Shown here: piece after piece, positions 4,420 to 52,433 of the stretch
Position numbering within the stretch: the first letter of the stretch is position 1
How the letters are laid out: the number at the start of each line of letters is the position of its first letter
IMG/VR virus record: IMGVR_UViG_3300032242_002717
Span: 1 to 64,000 of that record
DNA: 64,000 nt
Source: a virus
Direction: 5' to 3' (one strand)
The notes under the pieces: generated by a model
What the model was told of the DNA's origin: nothing
Database searches by the model: none
What the model saw: the letters and a program-made list of their open reading frames with translations, nothing else
Translations under genes and position numbers: made by a program

Positions 4420-4749
4420 ATGCTTACAAACGAAGAAGACGAGTCCAAGAACGTGTGCGATAACTGCGGTGACGAGATGACTCTTCTTGAATCAGAAGAG
4501 GGCGGCACAACTTGCGAAGAGTGTGTTGTCTTGATGTGCAGTGACGAACAAGACTACGACGATGAAGACGACTACGAAGATGACGATGAAGACGACGACG
4601 ATGACTATGAAGACTACGATGATGAAGATGAAGACGACGAAGACGAAGATGACGACATGGAAATGTGCGACGACTGCGGGCATAGCCTCTGGACGTGCAA
4701 CTGCACATGGGCAATCTCTGATCGATTGGAGCCTGTGCTAAATGGGTGA
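4420..4749 (+). CDS. Highly acidic small protein with Cys motifs flanking a D/E tract
   Basis: GGAG RBS; ~38-residue D/E/Y tract between CxxC motifs. Confidence 0.7.
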   Translation: MLTNEEDESKNVCDNCGDEMTLLESEEGGTTCEECVVLMCSDEQDYDDEDDYEDDDEDDDDDYEDYDDEDEDDEDEDDDMEMCDDCGHSLWTCNCTWAISDRLEPVLNG

Positions 4750-4993
4750 CGACTACGAAGAGGAGACCAAAGAGAACGCAACGGCCATGTATCTTCAGTC
4801 GTGGCAATTCGTTGCCATTGTCTGGATAACAATGATTAGTTGTTCTTACGGTGTTCTCAGCATCTACTCTTGGGCGTCAGGCTCGGAGTCGCCGCCAAGC
4901 ATATTCCAGGCGTTCGCCCTGATCTGCGTTGTCATGATGTTGCTCGACGTTAAGGAAGAGATCGAAAAGATCTTGGCCCCTAACGAGAGATAG
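4742..4993 (+). CDS. Small two-TM membrane protein
   Basis: Two hydrophobic stretches; overlaps upstream stop. Confidence 0.6.
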   Translation: MGDDYEEETKENATAMYLQSWQFVAIVWITMISCSYGVLSIYSWASGSESPPSIFQAFALICVVMMLLDVKEEIEKILAPNER

Positions 4994-5000
4994 TCGCCAA

Positions 5001-5024
5001 AAAGGTCTCCGCGCGGAGACCTTT
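5001..5024. promoter_or_regulatory. 24-bp perfect palindrome AAAGGTCTCCGCGCGGAGACCTTT (dispersed motif copy)
   Basis: Direct reading; related copies at 5183, 15272, 15820, 28439, 36328, 52344. Confidence 0.8.
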
Positions 5025-5234: not shown

Positions 5235-5780
5235 GTGATGTCACGTGAATGCAATGATAGGTGCCAATGTTCCGTATGCAAAGAACTTGACATTGTAGAA
5301 TTAGAGGCTGAGAACACAAGACTCAAATGGGAAGCAGAAAGGCTGCGAGAAGAGAATCGCAAACTTAGAGATGCATGGCCAGAAAGCAAGACAATTAAAG
5401 AGTGGTCTTCCGTTGAGAATTCCATTTACGTCACAACGATAGGCAACTTTTTTTCTTACCCTGATTGCCGGTTGTATGGCACTTGGGATGAAGCGGTTAA
5501 TGCAGCAGCAGAGATTACTCCAAGCAAAGAAGAGGCGGGAATATCGAGCGTAGCCGATAAGCTTCGAGAAGAATTGGTCGCTGCACATAAAGAAATAGGA
5601 CTTGTCCGCCAAAGCGCAGGGCAACTCATACTTTATGTGGCGTTGGCACGTTTGGATATGAATGACATGCGTGAGGACATAAGCAACATGTACAACGAAA
5701 ACAAGGAACTTGCTGCAAGGTGTGAGCGTCTTGAGACTGAAAACAAAATTCTTAGGGATGCATTCGAGTGCGTTGGCTAA
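5235..5780 (+). CDS. Modular coiled-coil hypothetical protein (RKLRDAWP module)
   Basis: N-terminal CxCxxC; module shared with 12031-12342. Confidence 0.7.
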   Translation: MMSRECNDRCQCSVCKELDIVELEAENTRLKWEAERLREENRKLRDAWPESKTIKEWSSVENSIYVTTIGNFFSYPDCRLYGTWDEAVNAAAEITPSKEEAGISSVADKLREELVAAHKEIGLVRQSAGQLILYVALARLDMNDMREDISNMYNENKELAARCERLETENKILRDAFECVG

Positions 5781-12348: not shown

Positions 12349-13167
12349 ATGAAAGACAAAATCAAGGTAGTCACTGAGCCTCAAGTTTTTTTGATTGGAG
12401 ACCAGTCGATTGACCATGTAGAGTTAGACAGGTTTTTCGAGGGTGTAATGGCCGGGGAGATGTTCCCGCTAACAGGAATGAGTGAAAGCGAGGTTATCGT
12501 TGAGTTAGCAGGACGACTTTGCTATATGTCGTTCAAGAAACCCAGACCTGGAGGAAACAAGGCATACCTGAAACACATCCTTGAAGTCGGCCATGGATCA
12601 GTTCTTGAACATGCTGTCTATAGCATGATAATCACTGGAGTAAGCAGATCTCTTACTCACGAATTCATCCGACATCGAGCAGGATTTGGCTATTCTGAGC
12701 TTTCGCAACGCTATGTAAACATGGAAGACGTTTCGTTCGTAGTTCCACCGGCTTTGTTTCCTGCTTTCGGCTCTTTTCCATTGAGCGAACAAAAGTCAAT
12801 GGACAATTTTAGGAAAGCCAGAAAAGATTGGGAAAAGTCTTGCATTGAATCGCTAAACGCCTACTCTTCTATTGTGAATCTGTTGACATCGTCGTCGAAC
12901 GATGATGCCTCCACCATGAAAAACAAGCGTATTAGAGAAGCAGCAAGATCAGTATTGCCAAACTGCACTGAAACCAAAATTTTTGTTACGGGGAACGCAC
13001 GAGCGTGGAGGCATTTTATTGAGCTTCGCGCAGACGTTAATGCAGACGTAGAAATCCAAAGATTGGCAATTTTGATTTGCAGGACTCTTGCAGAACATAG
13101 CCCTCACATGTTTGAAGACATTGAGATTGAAAAAGATGGCGTAAAAAGCATAAACAAGAAAGTGTAA
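12349..13167 (+). CDS. thyX: FAD-dependent thymidylate synthase
   Basis: GHGSVLEH; RHR-x8-SQRY signature (RHRAGFGYSELSQRY); EAARSVLP; NARAWRHFIELR. Confidence 0.95.
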   Translation: MKDKIKVVTEPQVFLIGDQSIDHVELDRFFEGVMAGEMFPLTGMSESEVIVELAGRLCYMSFKKPRPGGNKAYLKHILEVGHGSVLEHAVYSMIITGVSRSLTHEFIRHRAGFGYSELSQRYVNMEDVSFVVPPALFPAFGSFPLSEQKSMDNFRKARKDWEKSCIESLNAYSSIVNLLTSSSNDDASTMKNKRIREAARSVLPNCTETKIFVTGNARAWRHFIELRADVNADVEIQRLAILICRTLAEHSPHMFEDIEIEKDGVKSINKKV

Positions 13168-13169
13168 AA

Positions 13170-13862
13170 ATGTCAAAAGTCAGTTTGACTAGAGATGAAA
13201 TAATCAAACTTATCGATTTACATAAAAACAATGACAAATCTGCAATTCAAGAAATTGTCGATTGCAACATGGGTTTAATTAGAAAGATAGCATCAAATTA
13301 CGCTTGTCTTTTTAAAATTCTGCCAAGAGATCAGTTCTACGATGACCTTCTTCAAGAGGGGGTAATCGGCGTGATTGAGGCGGCTGAAAGATTTGACTCA
13401 GGCAAAGGCACAACATTTTCTACCTACGCATACAAGCTAATAAGAGGTCGAATTGCGAGTCACTGCATGCAAACTTGCGGACAAATGTCTTTGCCTTTTA
13501 CGACGATAAAGAAAGCTGTGCAATCTCATCATGGAAAAGCAGTCGTGGACAACATGAGGTCAAGCGTTCGCATATTTCCTGGAACTGAACTTGGAATATG
13601 TTTTGAAGAAAGCATGGCACTTGAAGAAAAAGACGAGCTAAATTGGATGGAAAATAAGGTTTCTCAAGTGGTTGGCAATATGAGTAGAAGAGATAGGGAG
13701 GTCATGTCGATGAGACTTGGACTCAATGGAAATCAATCCATGAGTCCACTGGAAATCAGCAGGAAAACAGGGGTTAATTATGGTCTTTCGAAAATGATTG
13801 TTAGTAAAGAGTTGAGACGAATGAAAATGCTTTTCAAGGGATGCGTGCAATCATGGACATAG
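13170..13862 (+). CDS. sigma70-family sigma factor 2
   Basis: NMGLIRKIA, DLLQEGVIGVIEAAERFDSGKGTTFSTYA; region 4 HTH. Confidence 0.88.
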   Translation: MSKVSLTRDEIIKLIDLHKNNDKSAIQEIVDCNMGLIRKIASNYACLFKILPRDQFYDDLLQEGVIGVIEAAERFDSGKGTTFSTYAYKLIRGRIASHCMQTCGQMSLPFTTIKKAVQSHHGKAVVDNMRSSVRIFPGTELGICFEESMALEEKDELNWMENKVSQVVGNMSRRDREVMSMRLGLNGNQSMSPLEISRKTGVNYGLSKMIVSKELRRMKMLFKGCVQSWT

Positions 13863-14506: not shown

Positions 14507-15103
14507 ATGCTGATAATATTGCAATATCTCTGTTTTGTTGCTATCATTATGATAGCAACTAATCGGAGAAGTCGCATGAGTTCAGTTTCTGCTATTTCAT
14601 TGTTTTCTGGGCCAATACGGAAAGCATTTGAAAAGAAAATGGCAAGAAAAGATGCTGTCTTGCCTCCTGTTAAATATAAGCAAGGCGTTTTTAAATGGTT
14701 TGAACAAGACCCTATCATAGAAATCAACGAAAATTTTAACAATAGTCAAACAATTGTTAAACATTCGTTGGACACACAAGAAAAATCAGAGATATTGGCT
14801 CCATGGGAAGGCGAAAACCTTTTTGCCTGCAAGGATTACGTTGCAAGCATTATTCAGCCAGAGACTTGTGGACAGGATGATTTCATAAATAAAACCAAAA
14901 GAACATCACGTCGAAAATGGTCTATGCAAAGGCCGGACTGTGTAGGTTGGTGGAGGCGTAGGGATGTTGGAAGGAAAGGGTGGGGGCTGCTGGCCAAGAT
15001 GGAAATGCATAACGGAAAACTTGCCTGGATGAAATACAATACCTTGGTTTCGTATGTTGATGAAATCGAGGAAGGTAAGTTTTTTTGGCTTCCGTGGAAA
15101 TAA
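14507..15103 (+). CDS. Hypothetical protein with N-terminal TM
   Basis: ORF with hydrophobic N-terminus. Confidence 0.55.
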   Translation: MLIILQYLCFVAIIMIATNRRSRMSSVSAISLFSGPIRKAFEKKMARKDAVLPPVKYKQGVFKWFEQDPIIEINENFNNSQTIVKHSLDTQEKSEILAPWEGENLFACKDYVASIIQPETCGQDDFINKTKRTSRRKWSMQRPDCVGWWRRRDVGRKGWGLLAKMEMHNGKLAWMKYNTLVSYVDEIEEGKFFWLPWK

Positions 15104-15117
15104 ATTCCTTTGTGTTG

Positions 15118-15146
15118 TTGCCTTGTTATGGTTTTGTTGCTACTAT
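15118..15146 (+). promoter_or_regulatory. sigma70-type promoter upstream of the non-coding region
   Basis: TTGCCT-17 nt-TACTAT with extended -10 TG. Confidence 0.7.
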
Positions 15147-15152
15147 GTTGTT

Positions 15153-15700
15153 GGTAGGCTCGATTGGCCTACTTGCGTATTTTCGATTTTCGATTCAAGC
15201 GGTCGCCATACGCCACGAAAAATAGACTAATAAATCTGCCAGCGAGCTATCACAAGGGCTTTTAAGGCAGAAAAGGTCTCCAATTGGAGACCTTTGGTTT
15301 TCACGATGTTCTTTTCCCTGTGGCAAAACGACCAATGCTTGAAACCTGACACCTCCCTGATAAGAGGTGGAGCTAGGGGTGAGGCGAAAGCCAAAAGACT
15401 CAACCGGCGATTCTAGCCAAACCCGGTCCCCCGAACGATCCGCATGCCATTCGTGATCACAAAAAAATTCCAGGCAATGTCCTCAATCTGACAACCTGGG
15501 GGTCATGACCTACGCAAGTAGGTTCGCAAAACTTACTGGCCAGAAGGGCCAGGGTGGCAACAGGACGAGTTTGCAGGTCTGAGACTATCGGTGACGTTAC
15601 GGCAATCGCTAGTGATGTTTGTTCTTCAGTGTTGTACGGGTCTATGTCCAGGAAACTCAGGGTAATAGTTTTCTGTTCGTAGGAAGTACAGTCAGGCAAA
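15153..15700 (+). ncRNA. Putative large structured non-coding RNA, family not recognised
   Basis: No plus-strand ORF of 60 aa or more; nested helices, GAAA and GCAA tetraloops, long-range pairing CCTGAC/GTCAGG; dedicated promoter. Confidence 0.65.
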
Positions 15701-15856
15701 AAGTAAAAATACTTTTAGTCAGACAGACAAGGAAGAGACGCAGGCAGCACTAGATATAACATGACCCATAAAGATATGCTATGCGCTGAGCTAATTGTGC
15801 TTTTTTGAGTTGTTTTATGGTCTCCGCGCGGAGACGTTTTCTGTCAGGAGACGCCT

Positions 15857-16489
15857 GTGAAAATCATGTTCAACGGAACCTCTGGTGGAGTTGTTGAGTT
15901 TGTTGTTCAGTTGGATGAAGGGCTTATCGATTCTCATGGATCAAGCTGCGGATACGTCGAATCCTTTTGGAGATGCCTTGATTCTTATCTTCAACTGACG
16001 CGAGTTGCTTCCGGGTACGGAGAAACACCGGATGCAATCAAATCTTGGCTACTCGAAAAGATCTGCGTGATGAAAACTAGGCACGAAGGCCGAATGGCTT
16101 ACAACGACGCCTGTATTGACCTTGAGTCAATGATTAAGTCTGAGTGGGACGAAACTGCCAGGCGAATCCAAAACGGCTCTGTGCCTTCCCTGGGGCTTCC
16201 TGGAGGCCCGCGAGTGCTTGAGCCTAAAGATGACGTTCCGTTGACTCATGGCGACATCGCAGCAGAAACTAAAGCCACAGACCTTCAAAGTCTTAATGAC
16301 AACCCATTAGAGGGACTGTTGCTTATTGCCGATGGTTTGGAAGCCGCATTGAGTCACAGGCTAGCAGAAAAGATCAGGTCTTGCGTGTTAAGCATTCAAA
16401 AAACCGACAAGTCGCAAGGATTACAAAAGTTAAATCCTATCGATCACGATCACGAAGCGACAGTTGTTGTCAATCAAGCTTCAAGTTAA
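15857..16489 (+). CDS. Hypothetical protein
   Basis: AGGAG RBS, GTG start; palindrome copy at 15820-15835 in its leader. Confidence 0.65.
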   Translation: MKIMFNGTSGGVVEFVVQLDEGLIDSHGSSCGYVESFWRCLDSYLQLTRVASGYGETPDAIKSWLLEKICVMKTRHEGRMAYNDACIDLESMIKSEWDETARRIQNGSVPSLGLPGGPRVLEPKDDVPLTHGDIAAETKATDLQSLNDNPLEGLLLIADGLEAALSHRLAEKIRSCVLSIQKTDKSQGLQKLNPIDHDHEATVVVNQASS

Positions 16490-19637: not shown

Positions 19638-22600
19638 ATGGCAGACGACCAACTAACGCAAAAACAGAGAGCATTAGCAGAACTTGAGCTTCGTCGTCGG
19701 GAGACGATCAAGAATCTCGGTCCTGTTTTTGATTGGTATGGAAAACCGTGTTTTTGCAAAGAGTATGATGCGGAAAAGCAGAATTGCAAAAAGCATCCAA
19801 GAGCATTGCCTCATCAAAGGCCACCTGATGGAATTGATTGGCTAACATGGATGATGCTTGCCGGTCGATCAAGCGGAAAAACCCGAGCGTCCGCTGAGTG
19901 GATTCGCTACAAGGTTGAATCTCATGCAGCAAAAGGCGAGCAGATAAGAATTGCGCTGGTGAACGAGACGGTTAGTGAAGTTCGTCGAGTGCAAATCGAG
20001 GGTGCATCGGGATTGTTGGCGGTATCTCCGCCTTGGTTTATGCCCGTCTATATACCTTCAAAAGCTGAAGTTGTATGGCCCAACGGATCTGTGGCTTACA
20101 TATTTTCAGGCGAACAGCCAGACCAACTCCGAGGACCGCAACATCACTATGCATGGTGCTTGCCTGGGTGGACTCAAGTCCTTATGGGCGATGGCACGGA
20201 AAAGCCAATCTCTGACGTTGCCATCGGCGATAAGGTGATGACAAGAGCCGGTGCAAGGACGGTTACGGCATCAATGATGACTCGTCGTTCGGCTCAATGT
20301 CTGACTATGACTTTATCAGATGGAAGAACCCTGACGGCGACCGCAGAACATCCTGTTTACATCGAAGGTCGTGGATTTGTTCCTCTTGGGCAATTAAAAC
20401 CAGGAATGCTTGTATGTGCGATAGATGCATCGTTCACGATGGAGTCTCTTATCACGTCTGGGCAAAAGGATACTACGAGACAAGAATCCGACTTCATCGT
20501 GTCATATGGCAGCAAGCATTTGGGCCAATCCCCAAGGGATTTGACGTCCACCACAAGAACGGCAACAAACTCGACAATCGAATTGAAAACCTTGAATTGC
20601 TTCTCAAGGCAGAGCATAGCAGATACCACTTTGCCATTCATATCACGCCCAACGTCAGAAAAAAAGCGGCAGAAAGATCAGTTGCCAAAATGCATCAAAG
20701 GCGGAATGCCAACGAACAAGTCGTTCGTATTTGTGCGATGTGCAAAGGCGAGTACACTAGCAGGTCTTTTACGCCATCTGCTTTCTGCTCGTCGCCATGC
20801 GTGGAAAAAGCAAGGTCTGGTGGATTCGCAGGCGAAAGCAGGATTTGCTCGCATTGCGGAGCGACTTATACAGCATACAGGAGATGCCACAAGTATTGCT
20901 CAAAGAATTGCAACAACCGTGCATCGCAAGTGCGATATGCGAATAAGGAATCGCTTCTCAAGACAGTTAAATGCGAACAATGCAGCAAAGAGTTTGACAG
21001 CAGGCGAATTAACGCAAGGTTCTGCTCAAGACCTTGTTCCCTTAACTACCACGCTCGAAATTCAAAGCGTACAACCTTGTCGGACGCTACTAGACGTCTA
21101 CGATCTAACGGTTGACAAAGAACACGAATTTTTCGCAAACCGTTTACTGGTAAGGAATTGCGATGAATTGTGCCTAACTCCAGACACCATAATAACTTGC
21201 GCCGATTTTGATAAGCCGATATCTCAAGTAGTTCCAGGCGACATGGTGTTGACTCGTGCTGGTTATCGGCCAGTTGTTGCAGCCTGGAAAACAACAGATT
21301 TAGCCGTTGTGTATCGCCTGACAGCAGACGATGGAAGTTTCATTGTTGGCACTGCCGGGCATCCTGTGTGGGTTGAGGGTGAAGGATGGGTTCCATTAGC
21401 GAATGTGAAGCCGGGCAGCAGACTGAGAAGCCTGACCTCATGCCGTGCGTTGTCTGGGGAGGTCGTCGATGGTGGCTCAATGGCCCATACTACATGTCAC
21501 GAGAAGGAAAATTGCTTCATAGGGCGATTTACGCAGAACATCATGGGCCAATCCCGAAGAACATGGACATTCACCATAAAGACTTTTGCAAAACTAATAA
21601 CGCAATTGAAAACCTTGAGGCGCTTACGAGAAGTGATCACCTCAAGTCTCATAGGATCGTTGGCTGGCCAGGTCCACCAAAGAAAGAGCTTGAACGCAGG
21701 TTCCGGCCTTGGCATTGCCGAGAGCCTGTTTCGTATACATGTAAGTGGTGCAACAAACAGTTTGTCAGCAAAGCTACATATGCATACTACTGCTCCAAAG
21801 AATGCAGAAATAGGTACGTCTGGCACATTGGCACAGATAGCGGGCCTTCAGCCAAGTCAAAGCGAATTCGAGGCAAGATATCTGAGGGAACTCGAAAGCC
21901 ATACAAAACAAAGAAACCAGAAGGCTGGAAGCCAAAAGAGAGGCCGGTCAAGCCTTTGCCTGAGTGCGTTATCTGCAAAACACAGTTTGCGGCCAAAGAC
22001 AGTCGCGGCGTTACATGCGGTTTTGAATGCGGGTGGTCACTACGAAAAAAGCGTTGGGCCGAGAAGCGTGAGCGTGGAGAGGCTTCCCGAAAGAAGTCCG
22101 GTGTATAACATTGAGGTCGAAGGGGAACACGAGTATTTCGCCAACGGTATCCTAACTCATAATTGCAAATGGTCAAAAGCCCAAGCGCAGGTTTGGGATA
22201 ATCTTCTTCTGGGCATGCGTCTTGGCAATAATCCTCAAATTGTTGTGTCTACTACGCCCCAGCCAACGCCAACCCTCCGGGCCATAATTGCAGACAAATT
22301 TACTAAAATATCGAAAGCTTCTACCTATGCCAACCGAAACAATCTTCCAGAAAAGTTCTTTGAAAGCGTAGTAAACAAATACGAGGGTACGAGAATCGGT
22401 CGCCAGGAGTTACATGCTGAGGTTTTGCTTCAGAATCAGAATGCTCTTTGGAATCAAGCTCAAATCGATTCTTTGCGAGTCAGGTCTGTTCCCTATGGGG
22501 TCGAACTTAAAAGGATAGCGGTTGGAGTAGACCCTGCTGGCAAAATATCGGAGATGGCAAAGTTTGTTCATGGCATGCCAACGGAGTCTGGATCGGGCGA

Positions 22601-23066
22601 CGAGGCGGGTGTCGTGGTAGCTGGACTTGGCACTGATGGGCACGGATATATTTTGGGCGACCATTCTACAGGCGGGTCTCCTTCGTCTTGGGGAAAGGCT
22701 GTAGGCGAAGCTTACCATAGGCATCAGGCCAACGTGGTTGTCTGGGAGTCTAATCACGGTGGCGATACGGTGCGAGATGTGATTCTAACGGTCGATCCGA
22801 ACATTGTTCAAAAGCGAGTTCATGCTAGTCGGTCCAAGTACGTTCGGGCCGAGCCTATTGGAGCATTATCTGAGCAAGGCAAAATTCACATAGTCGGCGA
22901 ACTACCACAACTCGAATCTGAAATGTGCGAGTTTGAGCCAGGTGGACCGTCTCCAAACAGGCTCGATGCAATGGTGTTTGCTCTTACAGACCTCATGATT
23001 CAGATCGAAGAAGAAGACAAACAAGAGCTTCCATTTAACAGAATTAGCATCAAGGGGCTTTTTTAA
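19638..23066 (+). CDS. terL: Terminase large subunit precursor with two inteins (mature ~477 aa)
   Basis: Walker A GRSSGKT; spliced Walker B AW-CDEL-CKW; coupling STTP; nuclease VGVDPA...SPNRLDA. Confidence 0.95.
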   Translation: MADDQLTQKQRALAELELRRRETIKNLGPVFDWYGKPCFCKEYDAEKQNCKKHPRALPHQRPPDGIDWLTWMMLAGRSSGKTRASAEWIRYKVESHAAKGEQIRIALVNETVSEVRRVQIEGASGLLAVSPPWFMPVYIPSKAEVVWPNGSVAYIFSGEQPDQLRGPQHHYAWCLPGWTQVLMGDGTEKPISDVAIGDKVMTRAGARTVTASMMTRRSAQCLTMTLSDGRTLTATAEHPVYIEGRGFVPLGQLKPGMLVCAIDASFTMESLITSGQKDTTRQESDFIVSYGSKHLGQSPRDLTSTTRTATNSTIELKTLNCFSRQSIADTTLPFISRPTSEKKRQKDQLPKCIKGGMPTNKSFVFVRCAKASTLAGLLRHLLSARRHAWKKQGLVDSQAKAGFARIAERLIQHTGDATSIAQRIATTVHRKCDMRIRNRFSRQLNANNAAKSLTAGELTQGSAQDLVPLTTTLEIQSVQPCRTLLDVYDLTVDKEHEFFANRLLVRNCDELCLTPDTIITCADFDKPISQVVPGDMVLTRAGYRPVVAAWKTTDLAVVYRLTADDGSFIVGTAGHPVWVEGEGWVPLANVKPGSRLRSLTSCRALSGEVVDGGSMAHTTCHEKENCFIGRFTQNIMGQSRRTWTFTIKTFAKLITQLKTLRRLREVITSSLIGSLAGQVHQRKSLNAGSGLGIAESLFRIHVSGATNSLSAKLHMHTTAPKNAEIGTSGTLAQIAGLQPSQSEFEARYLRELESHTKQRNQKAGSQKRGRSSLCLSALSAKHSLRPKTVAALHAVLNAGGHYEKSVGPRSVSVERLPERSPVYNIEVEGEHEYFANGILTHNCKWSKAQAQVWDNLLLGMRLGNNPQIVVSTTPQPTPTLRAIIADKFTKISKASTYANRNNLPEKFFESVVNKYEGTRIGRQELHAEVLLQNQNALWNQAQIDSLRVRSVPYGVELKRIAVGVDPAGKISEMAKFVHGMPTESGSGDEAGVVVAGLGTDGHGYILGDHSTGGSPSSWGKAVGEAYHRHQANVVVWESNHGGDTVRDVILTVDPNIVQKRVHASRSKYVRAEPIGALSEQGKIHIVGELPQLESEMCEFEPGGPSPNRLDAMVFALTDLMIQIEEEDKQELPFNRISIKGLF
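20157..21158 (+). mobile_element. Intein 1 (334 aa)
   Basis: Block A CLPGWTQV, block B TAEHPV, block F VYDLTV..HEFFAN, ends LVRN before Cys+1. Confidence 0.92.
20414..21115 (+). CDS. HNH endonuclease with three Zn-finger repeats, overlapping intein 1 in the -1 frame
   Basis: RLHRVIW...DVHHKNGNKLDNRIENL; CxxC..F/YCS..C x3; AGGA 8 nt before ATG 20414 (ORF open from 20297). Confidence 0.88.
   Translation: MCDRCIVHDGVSYHVWAKGYYETRIRLHRVIWQQAFGPIPKGFDVHHKNGNKLDNRIENLELLLKAEHSRYHFAIHITPNVRKKAAERSVAKMHQRRNANEQVVRICAMCKGEYTSRSFTPSAFCSSPCVEKARSGGFAGESRICSHCGATYTAYRRCHKYCSKNCNNRASQVRYANKESLLKTVKCEQCSKEFDSRRINARFCSRPCSLNYHARNSKRTTLSDATRRLRSNG
21171..22163 (+). mobile_element. Intein 2 (331 aa)
   Basis: Block A CLTPDT, block B TAGHPV, block F VYNIEV..HEYFAN, ends THN before Cys+1. 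Confidence 0.93.
21386..22108 (+). CDS. HNH endonuclease with Zn-finger repeats, overlapping intein 2 in the -1 frame
   Basis: LLHRAIY...DIHHKDFCKTNNAIENL; two CxxC..C..C fingers; GAGG 7 nt before ATG 21386. Confidence 0.88.
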   Translation: MGSISECEAGQQTEKPDLMPCVVWGGRRWWLNGPYYMSREGKLLHRAIYAEHHGPIPKNMDIHHKDFCKTNNAIENLEALTRSDHLKSHRIVGWPGPPKKELERRFRPWHCREPVSYTCKWCNKQFVSKATYAYYCSKECRNRYVWHIGTDSGPSAKSKRIRGKISEGTRKPYKTKKPEGWKPKERPVKPLPECVICKTQFAAKDSRGVTCGFECGWSLRKKRWAEKRERGEASRKKSGV

Positions 23067-36318: not shown

Positions 36319-36360
36319 TTTTAAGCTGTCTCCGCGCGGAGACCTTCAAGGAGATTTAAA

Positions 36361-52327: not shown

Positions 52328-52433
52328 TTGACCTTTCTTTTTGGTCTCCGCGCGGAGACAAGTCTTCTCTTGTGCCGACACATTCTAGGTTTGCTCTCGT
52401 TGCCTGGCAACCTTATGGCAACTAGAATACGGC

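Follow-up and report, generated by a model that had tools for sequence, protein, structure and literature searches.

A candidate for a new family of structured RNA in the gap before the packaging and structural genes of a phage

At the entrance of the packaging and structural module of the phage contig IMGVR_UViG_3300032242_002717 there is a gap of 753 nucleotides (nt) that holds no apparent gene, and the question raised by this locus is what the phage keeps there. The DNA analyzed, referred to as the window, is the first 64 kb of this 87.4-kb IMG/VR contig. The gap (15104-15856) separates two orphan open reading frames (ORFs), ORF-A, which ends at 15103, and ORF-B, which starts at 15857. All its neighbors are on the + strand, which carries most of the genes from ~5 kb to 50 kb. 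An original prediction, made from the nucleotide sequence alone, had proposed that these ~750 bp contain no credible gene and encode instead an unrecognized structured RNA of ~550 nt with its own promoter. The comparison with a related phage described below supports the presence of a real, strongly conserved folded RNA, non-coding and on the + strand, although its predicted limits and part of its predicted helices had to be changed.

A conserved fold in a non-coding gap

The only relative found is the uncultured phage IMGVR_UViG_3300032236_001100, represented by a 15.9-kb locus (L005) that is syntenic with the window and was retrieved from IMG/VR with an alignment of three ORF-B-type proteins. 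There, too, the RNA lies between ORF-A and ORF-B, and the same synteny continues after ORF-B. The amino acid identities between both phages are 87% for the terminase extein, 83% for the portal protein, 59% for the DUF4417 protein, 47% for ORF-B and 25% for ORF-A. Positions 15297-15797 of the window align to L005:4864-5326, within the ORF-A/ORF-B gap of the relative (nhmmer, E=1e-18). In the portal genes the third codon positions are 35% identical and the four-fold sites 26% identical, i.e., they are saturated. Over 195 aligned columns, the core of the RNA (15344-15578) shows 70% identity, and its longest invariant runs reach 14 nt. Since neutral sites are saturated, a selectively neutral spacer is excluded; the degree of conservation of this non-coding core is close to that seen at the first two codon positions of the portal gene. 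The blocks that are invariant in the cores of both phages are ACCUGAC, CUAGGG, CCCGAACG, AUGCCAU, AAAAUUCCAGGC, ACCUGGGGGUCAUG, ACGCAAGU and CGAGUUUGCAGGU.

The gap contains no ORF longer than 80 amino acids (aa) under code 11, in agreement with the original prediction, and a recoded gene was rejected because translation with TGA as W or TAG as Q produced nothing convincing. A tblastx comparison of the two gaps identified no conserved reading frame: the matches are short, occur in all frames and include stops in several cases, which indicates that the conservation of the gap is not coding. A conserved small ORF starting at AUGACCCAUAA was also discarded, as the frames diverge between the phages after three codons.

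The + strand of the region 15146-15700 has a minimum free energy (MFE) of -190 kcal/mol versus -165 +/- 7 kcal/mol for shuffled sequences (z -3.6), and none of 100 shuffles was as good. The - strand of the same region also folds better than shuffles (z -2.6). The G+C content is 0.50-0.52 in the gap versus about 0.41-0.43 in adjacent bins. All the helices listed in the original prediction are present as complementary segments, and MFE folds recovered the hairpin at 15153-15173, the helices of domain 1, the hairpin at 15272-15295, CACCUC/GAGGUG, UCCAGG/CCUGGG, ACCUAC-GCAA-GUAGGU and CUGGCC/GGCCAG, the last of which is nonetheless a window-specific insertion.

The comparison of the two cores (Table 1) resulted in 11 helices common to both phages, and the independent MFE folds of the two cores agree on P1, P2, P4, P5, P6, P6a and P7. 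Helix P7 is ACCUAC-GCAA-GUAGGU in the window versus GCCAC-GCAA-GUGGU in the relative, while P3a and P3b, like the 5′ hairpin and domain 1, are hairpins located at equivalent places with differing sequences. A covariance model was built from the relative alone, with the 11-helix structure written on its sequence, and a search of the window with this model produced a sole match, 15342-15583 on the + strand (85.8 bits, E=2e-25). A second copy of the RNA elsewhere in either phage was rejected because the model finds one per phage. On the model-fitted alignment, 99.1% of the 57 pairs are paired. Eight pairs are changed on both sides and still paired (two each in P2, P3b and P4b, one each in P3 and P6a), one pair is changed on one side (A-U to G-U), and no pair is truly broken, as the single unpaired cell is a misalignment of P7 due to the window-specific insertion. 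In six slid controls, where the 3′ partners were moved 1-3 columns, pairing dropped to 33-46% with no double changes. Three double changes (one each in P2, P3 and P6a) can already be seen on the plain MAFFT alignment and the second P2 change is located between invariant flanks; therefore, these four are independent of the fitted alignment. Base pairs are thus kept between homologs through compensatory substitutions, as judged on two sequences and a model-fitted alignment. The G-U pairs of the common structure, three in the window and six in the relative, favor the + strand, as had been anticipated, and the structure has an advantage of 4-8 kcal/mol over its mirror image on the - strand. The DNA contigs (three DNA runs from one study, one of them probably the source sample) showed no sequence variants within the RNA.

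Some of the helices assigned to domain 2 from the sequence alone were replaced after the comparison. The domain had been proposed to be closed by CCTGAC/GTCAGG (15345/15691), but the closing helix that both phages conserve is ACCUG/CAGGU (15344-48/15574-78). In the relative, the distal GUCAGG (15691) is retained only in part, as GUCAAG, and may be an alternative partner. The proposed pairings GCTAG/CTAGC and GCAAAACTT/GAGTTTGC have no counterpart in the relative. In the second of these pairings, GCAAAACUU/GAGUUUGC as RNA, GAGUUUGC forms P4 and P1 instead.

The RNA had been described as unrecognized, and this description holds. A cmscan search of the 64-kb window against Rfam 15 at gathering thresholds produced no matches, and at E<=10 only chance matches to unrelated families appeared, both in this gap and in its counterpart in the relative. 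The RNA belongs to none of the riboswitch, ribozyme or leader classes known in Rfam 15, and it is a strong candidate for a new RNA family, known from two phages. Other identities considered were rejected as well. A group I or group II intron was dismissed because ORF-A and ORF-B are separate genes with homologs of the same extent in the relative, and no intron model matched. A phi29-type pRNA was discarded on the basis of the lack of an Rfam match, the T4-type terminase with inteins and the siphophage-related portal. No tRNA or tmRNA was found in the 64-kb window by ARAGORN, which led to the rejection of these identities for the RNA.

Further homologs of the RNA were not detected by IMG/VR scans with ORF-B, ORF-A or the sigma factor as single proteins, or by blastn of the gap against 50,697 phage records. 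DNA-pattern scans of IMG/VR detected only the one relative plus chance matches, which nhmmer rejects, and the 31 matches from a pattern scan of metagenome contigs were all due to chance as judged by nhmmer and the covariance model. The 65 loci fetched through a terminase alignment were mostly intein-motif matches, with three distant terminase relatives, and included no RNA, ORF-A or ORF-B. Among 185,579 species genomes, portal relatives were found in only five prophage-like loci, all from Planctomycetota metagenome-assembled genomes (MAGs), with 36-45% identity; the RNA, ORF-A and ORF-B were absent from these five loci. A blastn search over 401 Planctomycetota genomes produced only chance-level matches. 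The covariance model, run over 121 genomes of one family, produced a single match (24 bits), which was rejected because it falls within a 772-aa ORF and contains none of the invariant blocks.

Promoter, flanking domains and neighboring genes

The promoter proposed at 15118-15146 scores 8/12, under the threshold of the scanner, and was for this reason not listed by it. This proposal gained support from the relative, in which TTGCCG-N17-TATTAT is found at the same place (L005:4697-4725), directly 5′ of its own hairpin. This is one of exactly two + strand sites listed by the scanner in 1.6 kb of the relative, the other being located before ORF-A. In both phages a TTGCC(T/G)-N17-TA(C/T)TAT sequence ends 6-7 nt 5′ of a stable hairpin: in the window the -10 element ends at 15146 and the hairpin occupies 15153-15173, and in the relative the scanner listed the hairpin at 4731-4757. 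The hairpin of the relative (L005:4732-4756) has 10 bp, a different sequence and also a 5-nt loop. The position of the promoter is conserved and supports the prediction of a promoter at this place. A promoter of the type TTGC...TGCTAnnAT also precedes ORF-A in both phages.

Domain 1 is kept in architecture but not in sequence, in partial agreement with what had been anticipated. In the relative it is a long hairpin (L005:4775-4906) with a 13-bp closing helix of unrelated sequence, and it ends exactly at ACCUGAC. Apart from GCCACR/UGUGGC, which is complementary in both phages and is not used by the MFE fold of L005, the sequences cannot be aligned. The 24-nt palindromic hairpin at 15272-15295, terminator-like in both directions, is missing from domain 1 of the relative and lies, consequently, outside the conserved RNA.

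The conservation also extends further in the 3′ direction than the ~550 nt to 15700 initially proposed, as conserved blocks continue to about 15790 and reach to 70-90 nt 5′ of the ORF-B start. Domain 3 shows long hairpins in the MFE folds of both full-length transcripts, and its alignment consists of short common blocks only. The motif ACATGACCCATAA was considered as a repeated phage promoter motif and rejected, since there is one copy in the window and one in L005. The longest complementarity kept in both phages joins GGGUCAUG (15500-15507) with its exact complement CAUGACCC (15760-15767) over 8 bp. In addition, the CGC(U/A)G sequence of the last 3′ block could pair with the 5′ strand of P3b, and one of these pairs differs on both sides between the phages. 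Both partners of GGGUCAUG/CAUGACCC are invariant and covariation is thus impossible there; the long-range pairings should be taken as leads.

Table 1. Features of the RNA locus and of its surroundings in the window.
Feature	Position	Strand	Description
ThyX	12349-13167		Upstream of the gap
Sigma-70-family protein	13170-13862		Upstream of the gap; followed by small ORFs and ORF-A
ORF-A	14507..15103	+	198 aa, orphan; basic; Trp-rich toward the C-terminal half; upstream neighbor in both phages
Sigma-70-type promoter	15118..15146	+	TTGCCT-N17-TACTAT, spacer ends TGC (extended -10); predicted start near 15153
5′ terminal hairpin	15153..15173	+	GGUAGGCU-CGAUU-GGCCUACU; in MFE folds; predicted transcript start
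Domain 1	15194..15343	+	Long interrupted hairpin: UUCAAGC/GCUUGAA, GGUCG/CGACC, GCCAC/GUGGC, UCUGCC/GGCAGA; 3′ end abuts the core
Palindromic hairpin	15272..15295	.	AAAGGUCUCC-AAUU-GGAGACCUUU; inside domain 1; variant of the repeated palindrome GTCTCC-NNNN-GGAGAC
Conserved core (domain 2)	15344..15578	+	Multi-junction fold, ~235 nt, four-way junction
P1	15344-48/15574-78	+	ACCUG/CAGGU, conserved closing helix
P2	15350-55/15364-69	+	
P3	15376-79/15428-32	+	
P3a	15383-85/15390-92	+	
P3b	15403-09/15422-27	+	
P4	15433-36/15569-72	+	
P4b	15437-41/15563-66	+	
P5	15445-49/15555-59	+	
P6	15468-74/15495-501	+	
P6a	15478-81/15490-93	+	
Invariant P6/P7 junction	15500..15510	+	GGGUCAUG
P7	15508-13/15518-23	+	GCAA loop, conserved
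P7a	15536-41/15547-52	+	Window only
Domain 3	15579..15740	+	Hairpin-rich spacer, poorly conserved; common blocks AGUCARG, AGACAGAC
Conserved 3′ blocks	15741..15790	+	AGGCAG; ACAUGACCCAUAA (15759-15771); UGCGCNGAG (15781-15789)
Repeated palindrome	15820..15835	.	GTCTCCGCGCGGAGAC then GTTTTCTG; 21 nt 5′ of the ORF-B start
ORF-B	15857..16489	+	210 aa, orphan; first gene 3′ of the RNA; presumed regulated gene
Ferritin-like protein, then DUF4417 nuclease			3′ of ORF-B
Large terminase	19638-23066		T4-type, two inteins; downstream, followed by portal and major head protein

ORF-A and ORF-B flank the RNA in both phages. ORF-A has no Pfam or PHROG family, and it shares 25% identity with L005:4042-4680 (E=5e-15). 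Extended -10 promoters are found within the annotated 5′ ends of both ORF-A genes (14519-14547 in the window and 4058-4086 in L005, TTGCAA/TTTGCA-17-TGcTATCAT/TATGAT), and because of this location translation of ORF-A probably begins at an internal Met downstream of the promoter (MSSVSAISL... in the window). ORF-B has no Pfam or PHROG match and carries the invariant motif NGSVPSLGLPGGPRVLE. A search of 5.8 billion clustered proteins found only two relatives; in a set of 1.84 billion representatives there were only two clusters at 50% identity, and HMMER over the same set detected no further relatives. Its homologs P0002, located on a 1.5-kb contig, and P0003 start at the same Met as ORF-B. The AlphaFold2 model of ORF-B has a predicted local distance difference test (pLDDT) value of 47, too low for use, and no usable neighbor was identified in the ESM Atlas.

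The sequence GTCTCCGCGCGGAGAC is a 16-nt perfect palindrome with exact copies at 5005-5020, 15820-15835, 36328-36343 and 52344-52359 and a variant at 15276-15291. In 16 kb of the relative it is present at L005 3977, 4310 and 7849. The number of copies expected by chance is 0.14 in the window and 0.04 in L005, and the palindrome is repeated exactly in both phages despite the saturation of neutral sites. Most copies lie directly before or after genes, and some are flanked by runs of A and T. The copy at 36328 is directly 5′ of a gene inside an operon and that at L005:4310 is inside the ORF-A coding sequence, locations that indicate that the palindrome is not a dependable terminator. Possible identities are a hairpin or terminator between cistrons, an operator bound by a dimeric phage protein, or a small palindrome that is mobile. 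No palindrome of this type is found between the core and ORF-B of the relative. In the window, the 5′ arm GUCUCC (15820-15825) can pair with the Shine-Dalgarno sequence of ORF-B, GGAGAC (15847-15852), instead of with the 3′ arm, and the MFE fold of the full-length transcript chooses this pairing, which may represent a window-specific translational control.

Two observations concern the phages themselves. The large terminase, which has two inteins in the window (19638-23066), corresponds to L005 10068-13160, where only one intein-like segment aligns and residues 1-81 match ~1.2 kb upstream of the remainder. This suggests that the relative carries a different terminase insertion (intein, intron or homing gene) near the N-terminus. 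With respect to the host, the only clue to the phylum comes from five GTDB contigs (L119-L123) from Planctomycetota/Planctomycetaceae MAGs, which carry relatives of both the portal and the major head protein; the closest cultured portal relative, from a Rhizobium siphophage, is 25% identical. The phage lineage probably infects Planctomycetota.

A possible leader of the packaging genes or an independent element

Our favored reading, to which we assign a probability of about 0.45, is that a new family of structured RNA is encoded in the gap and expressed on the + strand from its own sigma-70-type promoter. This RNA would constitute a ~700-nt 5′ leader for ORF-B and for the packaging and structural genes after it, with the core as a cis-acting sensor or switch. 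The transcript from the promoter at 15118-15146 would consist of the 5′ hairpin, domain 1, the ~235-nt multi-junction core and a hairpin-rich tail with invariant blocks. The folded core would bind a factor, which could be a protein, a small molecule or RNA polymerase, and the GGGUCAUG junction and the P3b strand would be either held in the core or paired with the 3′ blocks CAUGACCC and CGCNG. Depending on which of these states is adopted, the downstream message would change in its read-through, stability or translation. A leader is favored because the RNA is on the same strand as ORF-B, the conserved blocks run almost to this gene and the core is complementary to downstream blocks. It is also favored because both phages lack promoter-like sites from the core to ORF-B, and the relative lacks terminator-like sites there as well, its + strand having neither kind of site from L005:4897 to the start of ORF-B at 5371. 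A leader or antiterminator of the late operon had been one of the original suggestions; the leader seems to fit the anatomy best, while antitermination found no direct support.

Several points weigh against this reading. There are only two sequences, with which no statistical covariation test is possible, and 11 of 500 shuffles reach the observed counts. The consensus-fold energy (RNAalifold) on the unfitted MAFFT alignment is no better than that of column shuffles (z -1.3), the strong values (z -8.4 on the + strand and -6.7 on the - strand) come from an alignment that leans towards the structure, and the two cores alone are only modestly better than shuffles (z -2.1 and -2.6). The proposed long-range pairings join invariant blocks, have almost no comparative support and reach an RNAfold probability of 0.01-0.02. 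Transcription itself, like the leader role and the switch, is something that we infer from the sequence. Finally, the window has a terminator-like palindrome with a U-tract (15820-15835) between the RNA and ORF-B, an arrangement that suits a stand-alone RNA.

Such a stand-alone RNA is the main rival, less probable in our opinion than the leader. It would be a stable non-coding RNA acting in trans, transcribed from its own promoter and ended or processed before ORF-B, with a role as a ribozyme, as a scaffold for the ORF-A and ORF-B products or as a self-associating particle. The promoter and the stabilizing 5′ hairpin found in both phages would be expected from it, the four-way junction, 11-12 helices, invariant junctions and conserved GCAA loop exceed the complexity of most leaders, and the same two orphan genes, one of them very basic, always flank the RNA. 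Terminator-like palindromes flank the core on both sides in the window; in the relative, however, no terminator-like site separates the core from ORF-B and ORF-B lacks a promoter of its own, the palindrome 3′ of the core is also found inside operons (36328) and coding sequence (L005:4310), which makes it undependable as a terminator, and the conserved blocks extend well beyond the core. The junction sequence GGUCAUG(A/G)CC is self-complementary as RNA in both phages, with U-G wobbles required in the relative. A more specific and rather unlikely version, by analogy with ROOL, GOLLD and OLE, would be a free-standing catalytic or self-assembling RNA in which GGUCAUG(A/G)CC joins at least two copies in an RNA-only particle; equally unlikely would be an aptamer of an undescribed riboswitch class that times the packaging genes.

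The two remaining explanations do without a functional RNA fold. An ordinary intergenic control region with promoter, terminators and operators but no higher-order structure, in which case our model would be over-fitted to two sequences, is somewhat more doubtful still. The weak consensus signal on the unfitted alignment (z -1.3), the small number of sequences and the terminator-like and promoter-like sites of the gap are compatible with it, but it leaves unexplained both 235 nt of dense conservation (70% identity with saturated neutral sites) and the convergence of independent MFE folds with compensated differences, and it is precisely the terminator-like palindromes that the two phages do not have in common. 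The least likely of all is an element acting as DNA, such as a replication origin, a packaging signal or a group of protein-binding sites ahead of the packaging module, with hairpins that are incidental or form in single-stranded DNA. The terminase gene lies ~4 kb downstream of the gap, the gap has invariant blocks of 13-15 nt and palindromes, and the - strand also beats shuffles (z -2.6, and z -6.7 on the fitted alignment). Against this, changes on both sides of the helices have preserved their pairing and the sequence between blocks varies freely, the G-U pairs of conserved helices become A-C mismatches on the other strand, a direct-repeat search against the phage's own genome detected short palindrome matches only, the gap is rich in G+C rather than A+T, and at its start both phages have retained a promoter with a 5′ hairpin after it.

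Comparison with known systems

If the RNA is a leader, as we tentatively favor, one system to compare it with is the late leader of lambda (PR'-6S RNA-tR'), which is short and depends on a DNA/RNA site for the Q protein. The locus resembles it in having a promoter that separates the regulatory region from the late, packaging and structural genes, and after this promoter a non-coding leader with terminator-like hairpins. It differs because the lambda leader has no conserved complex fold and no Q-like gene was identified in the window. The RNA also resembles riboswitches and other long 5′ leaders in its position, its strand and its junction-rich conserved core, and the complementarity between invariant segments of the core and invariant blocks further downstream recalls that of an aptamer and its expression platform. 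In contrast, no known class matches, and the ~280 nt that separate the core from the start codon are an unusually large distance. Since the gene presumably regulated is an orphan, the ligand cannot be guessed. To our knowledge, almost nothing is known about phage regulation in Planctomycetota, and a switch at this place would provide a handle on late-gene timing in these phages.

The put sites of phage HK022 are cis-acting in the nascent RNA, have ~70 nt with two stem-loops and make RNA polymerase resistant to terminators, with no dedicated protein required in the model system (PMC9378689). As in that case, the RNA described here is a phage RNA located just 3′ of a promoter and 5′ of terminator-like hairpins and a long operon, and there is a promoter-proximal hairpin in both phages. 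The conserved fold is nevertheless different and much larger: it is a 235-nt multi-junction structure that starts ~190 nt after the promoter, and two of the three terminator-like hairpins of the window precede the core, none of them being conserved in the relative. No likeness in sequence to put was seen, with no search aimed at it.

The original prediction had also placed the RNA in the size class of GOLLD and ROOL, orphan RNAs that are large and ornate and are often found in phages and prophages (Weinberg et al. 2017, PMC5737381). They have ~600-800 nt, are frequently located beside tRNA genes in phages and prophages (PMC5737381), and form RNA-only multimers as seen by cryo-EM (bioRxiv 10.1101/2024.12.08.627333). 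The size class was not confirmed, as the core has ~235 nt and the unit from the predicted start to the end of the core ~430 nt. Furthermore, the RNA matches no Rfam 15 model, there is no tRNA in the 64-kb window, the RNA was found in two phages only and it is probably continuous with the downstream mRNA. The comparison with these orphan phage RNAs holds in other respects: the RNA is carried by a phage, is free of ORFs, has multiple helices and invariant junctions and no assigned function, and includes a self-complementary segment that could in principle mediate self-association. If it were a free RNA, it would add to the small set of ornate phage RNAs with open roles.

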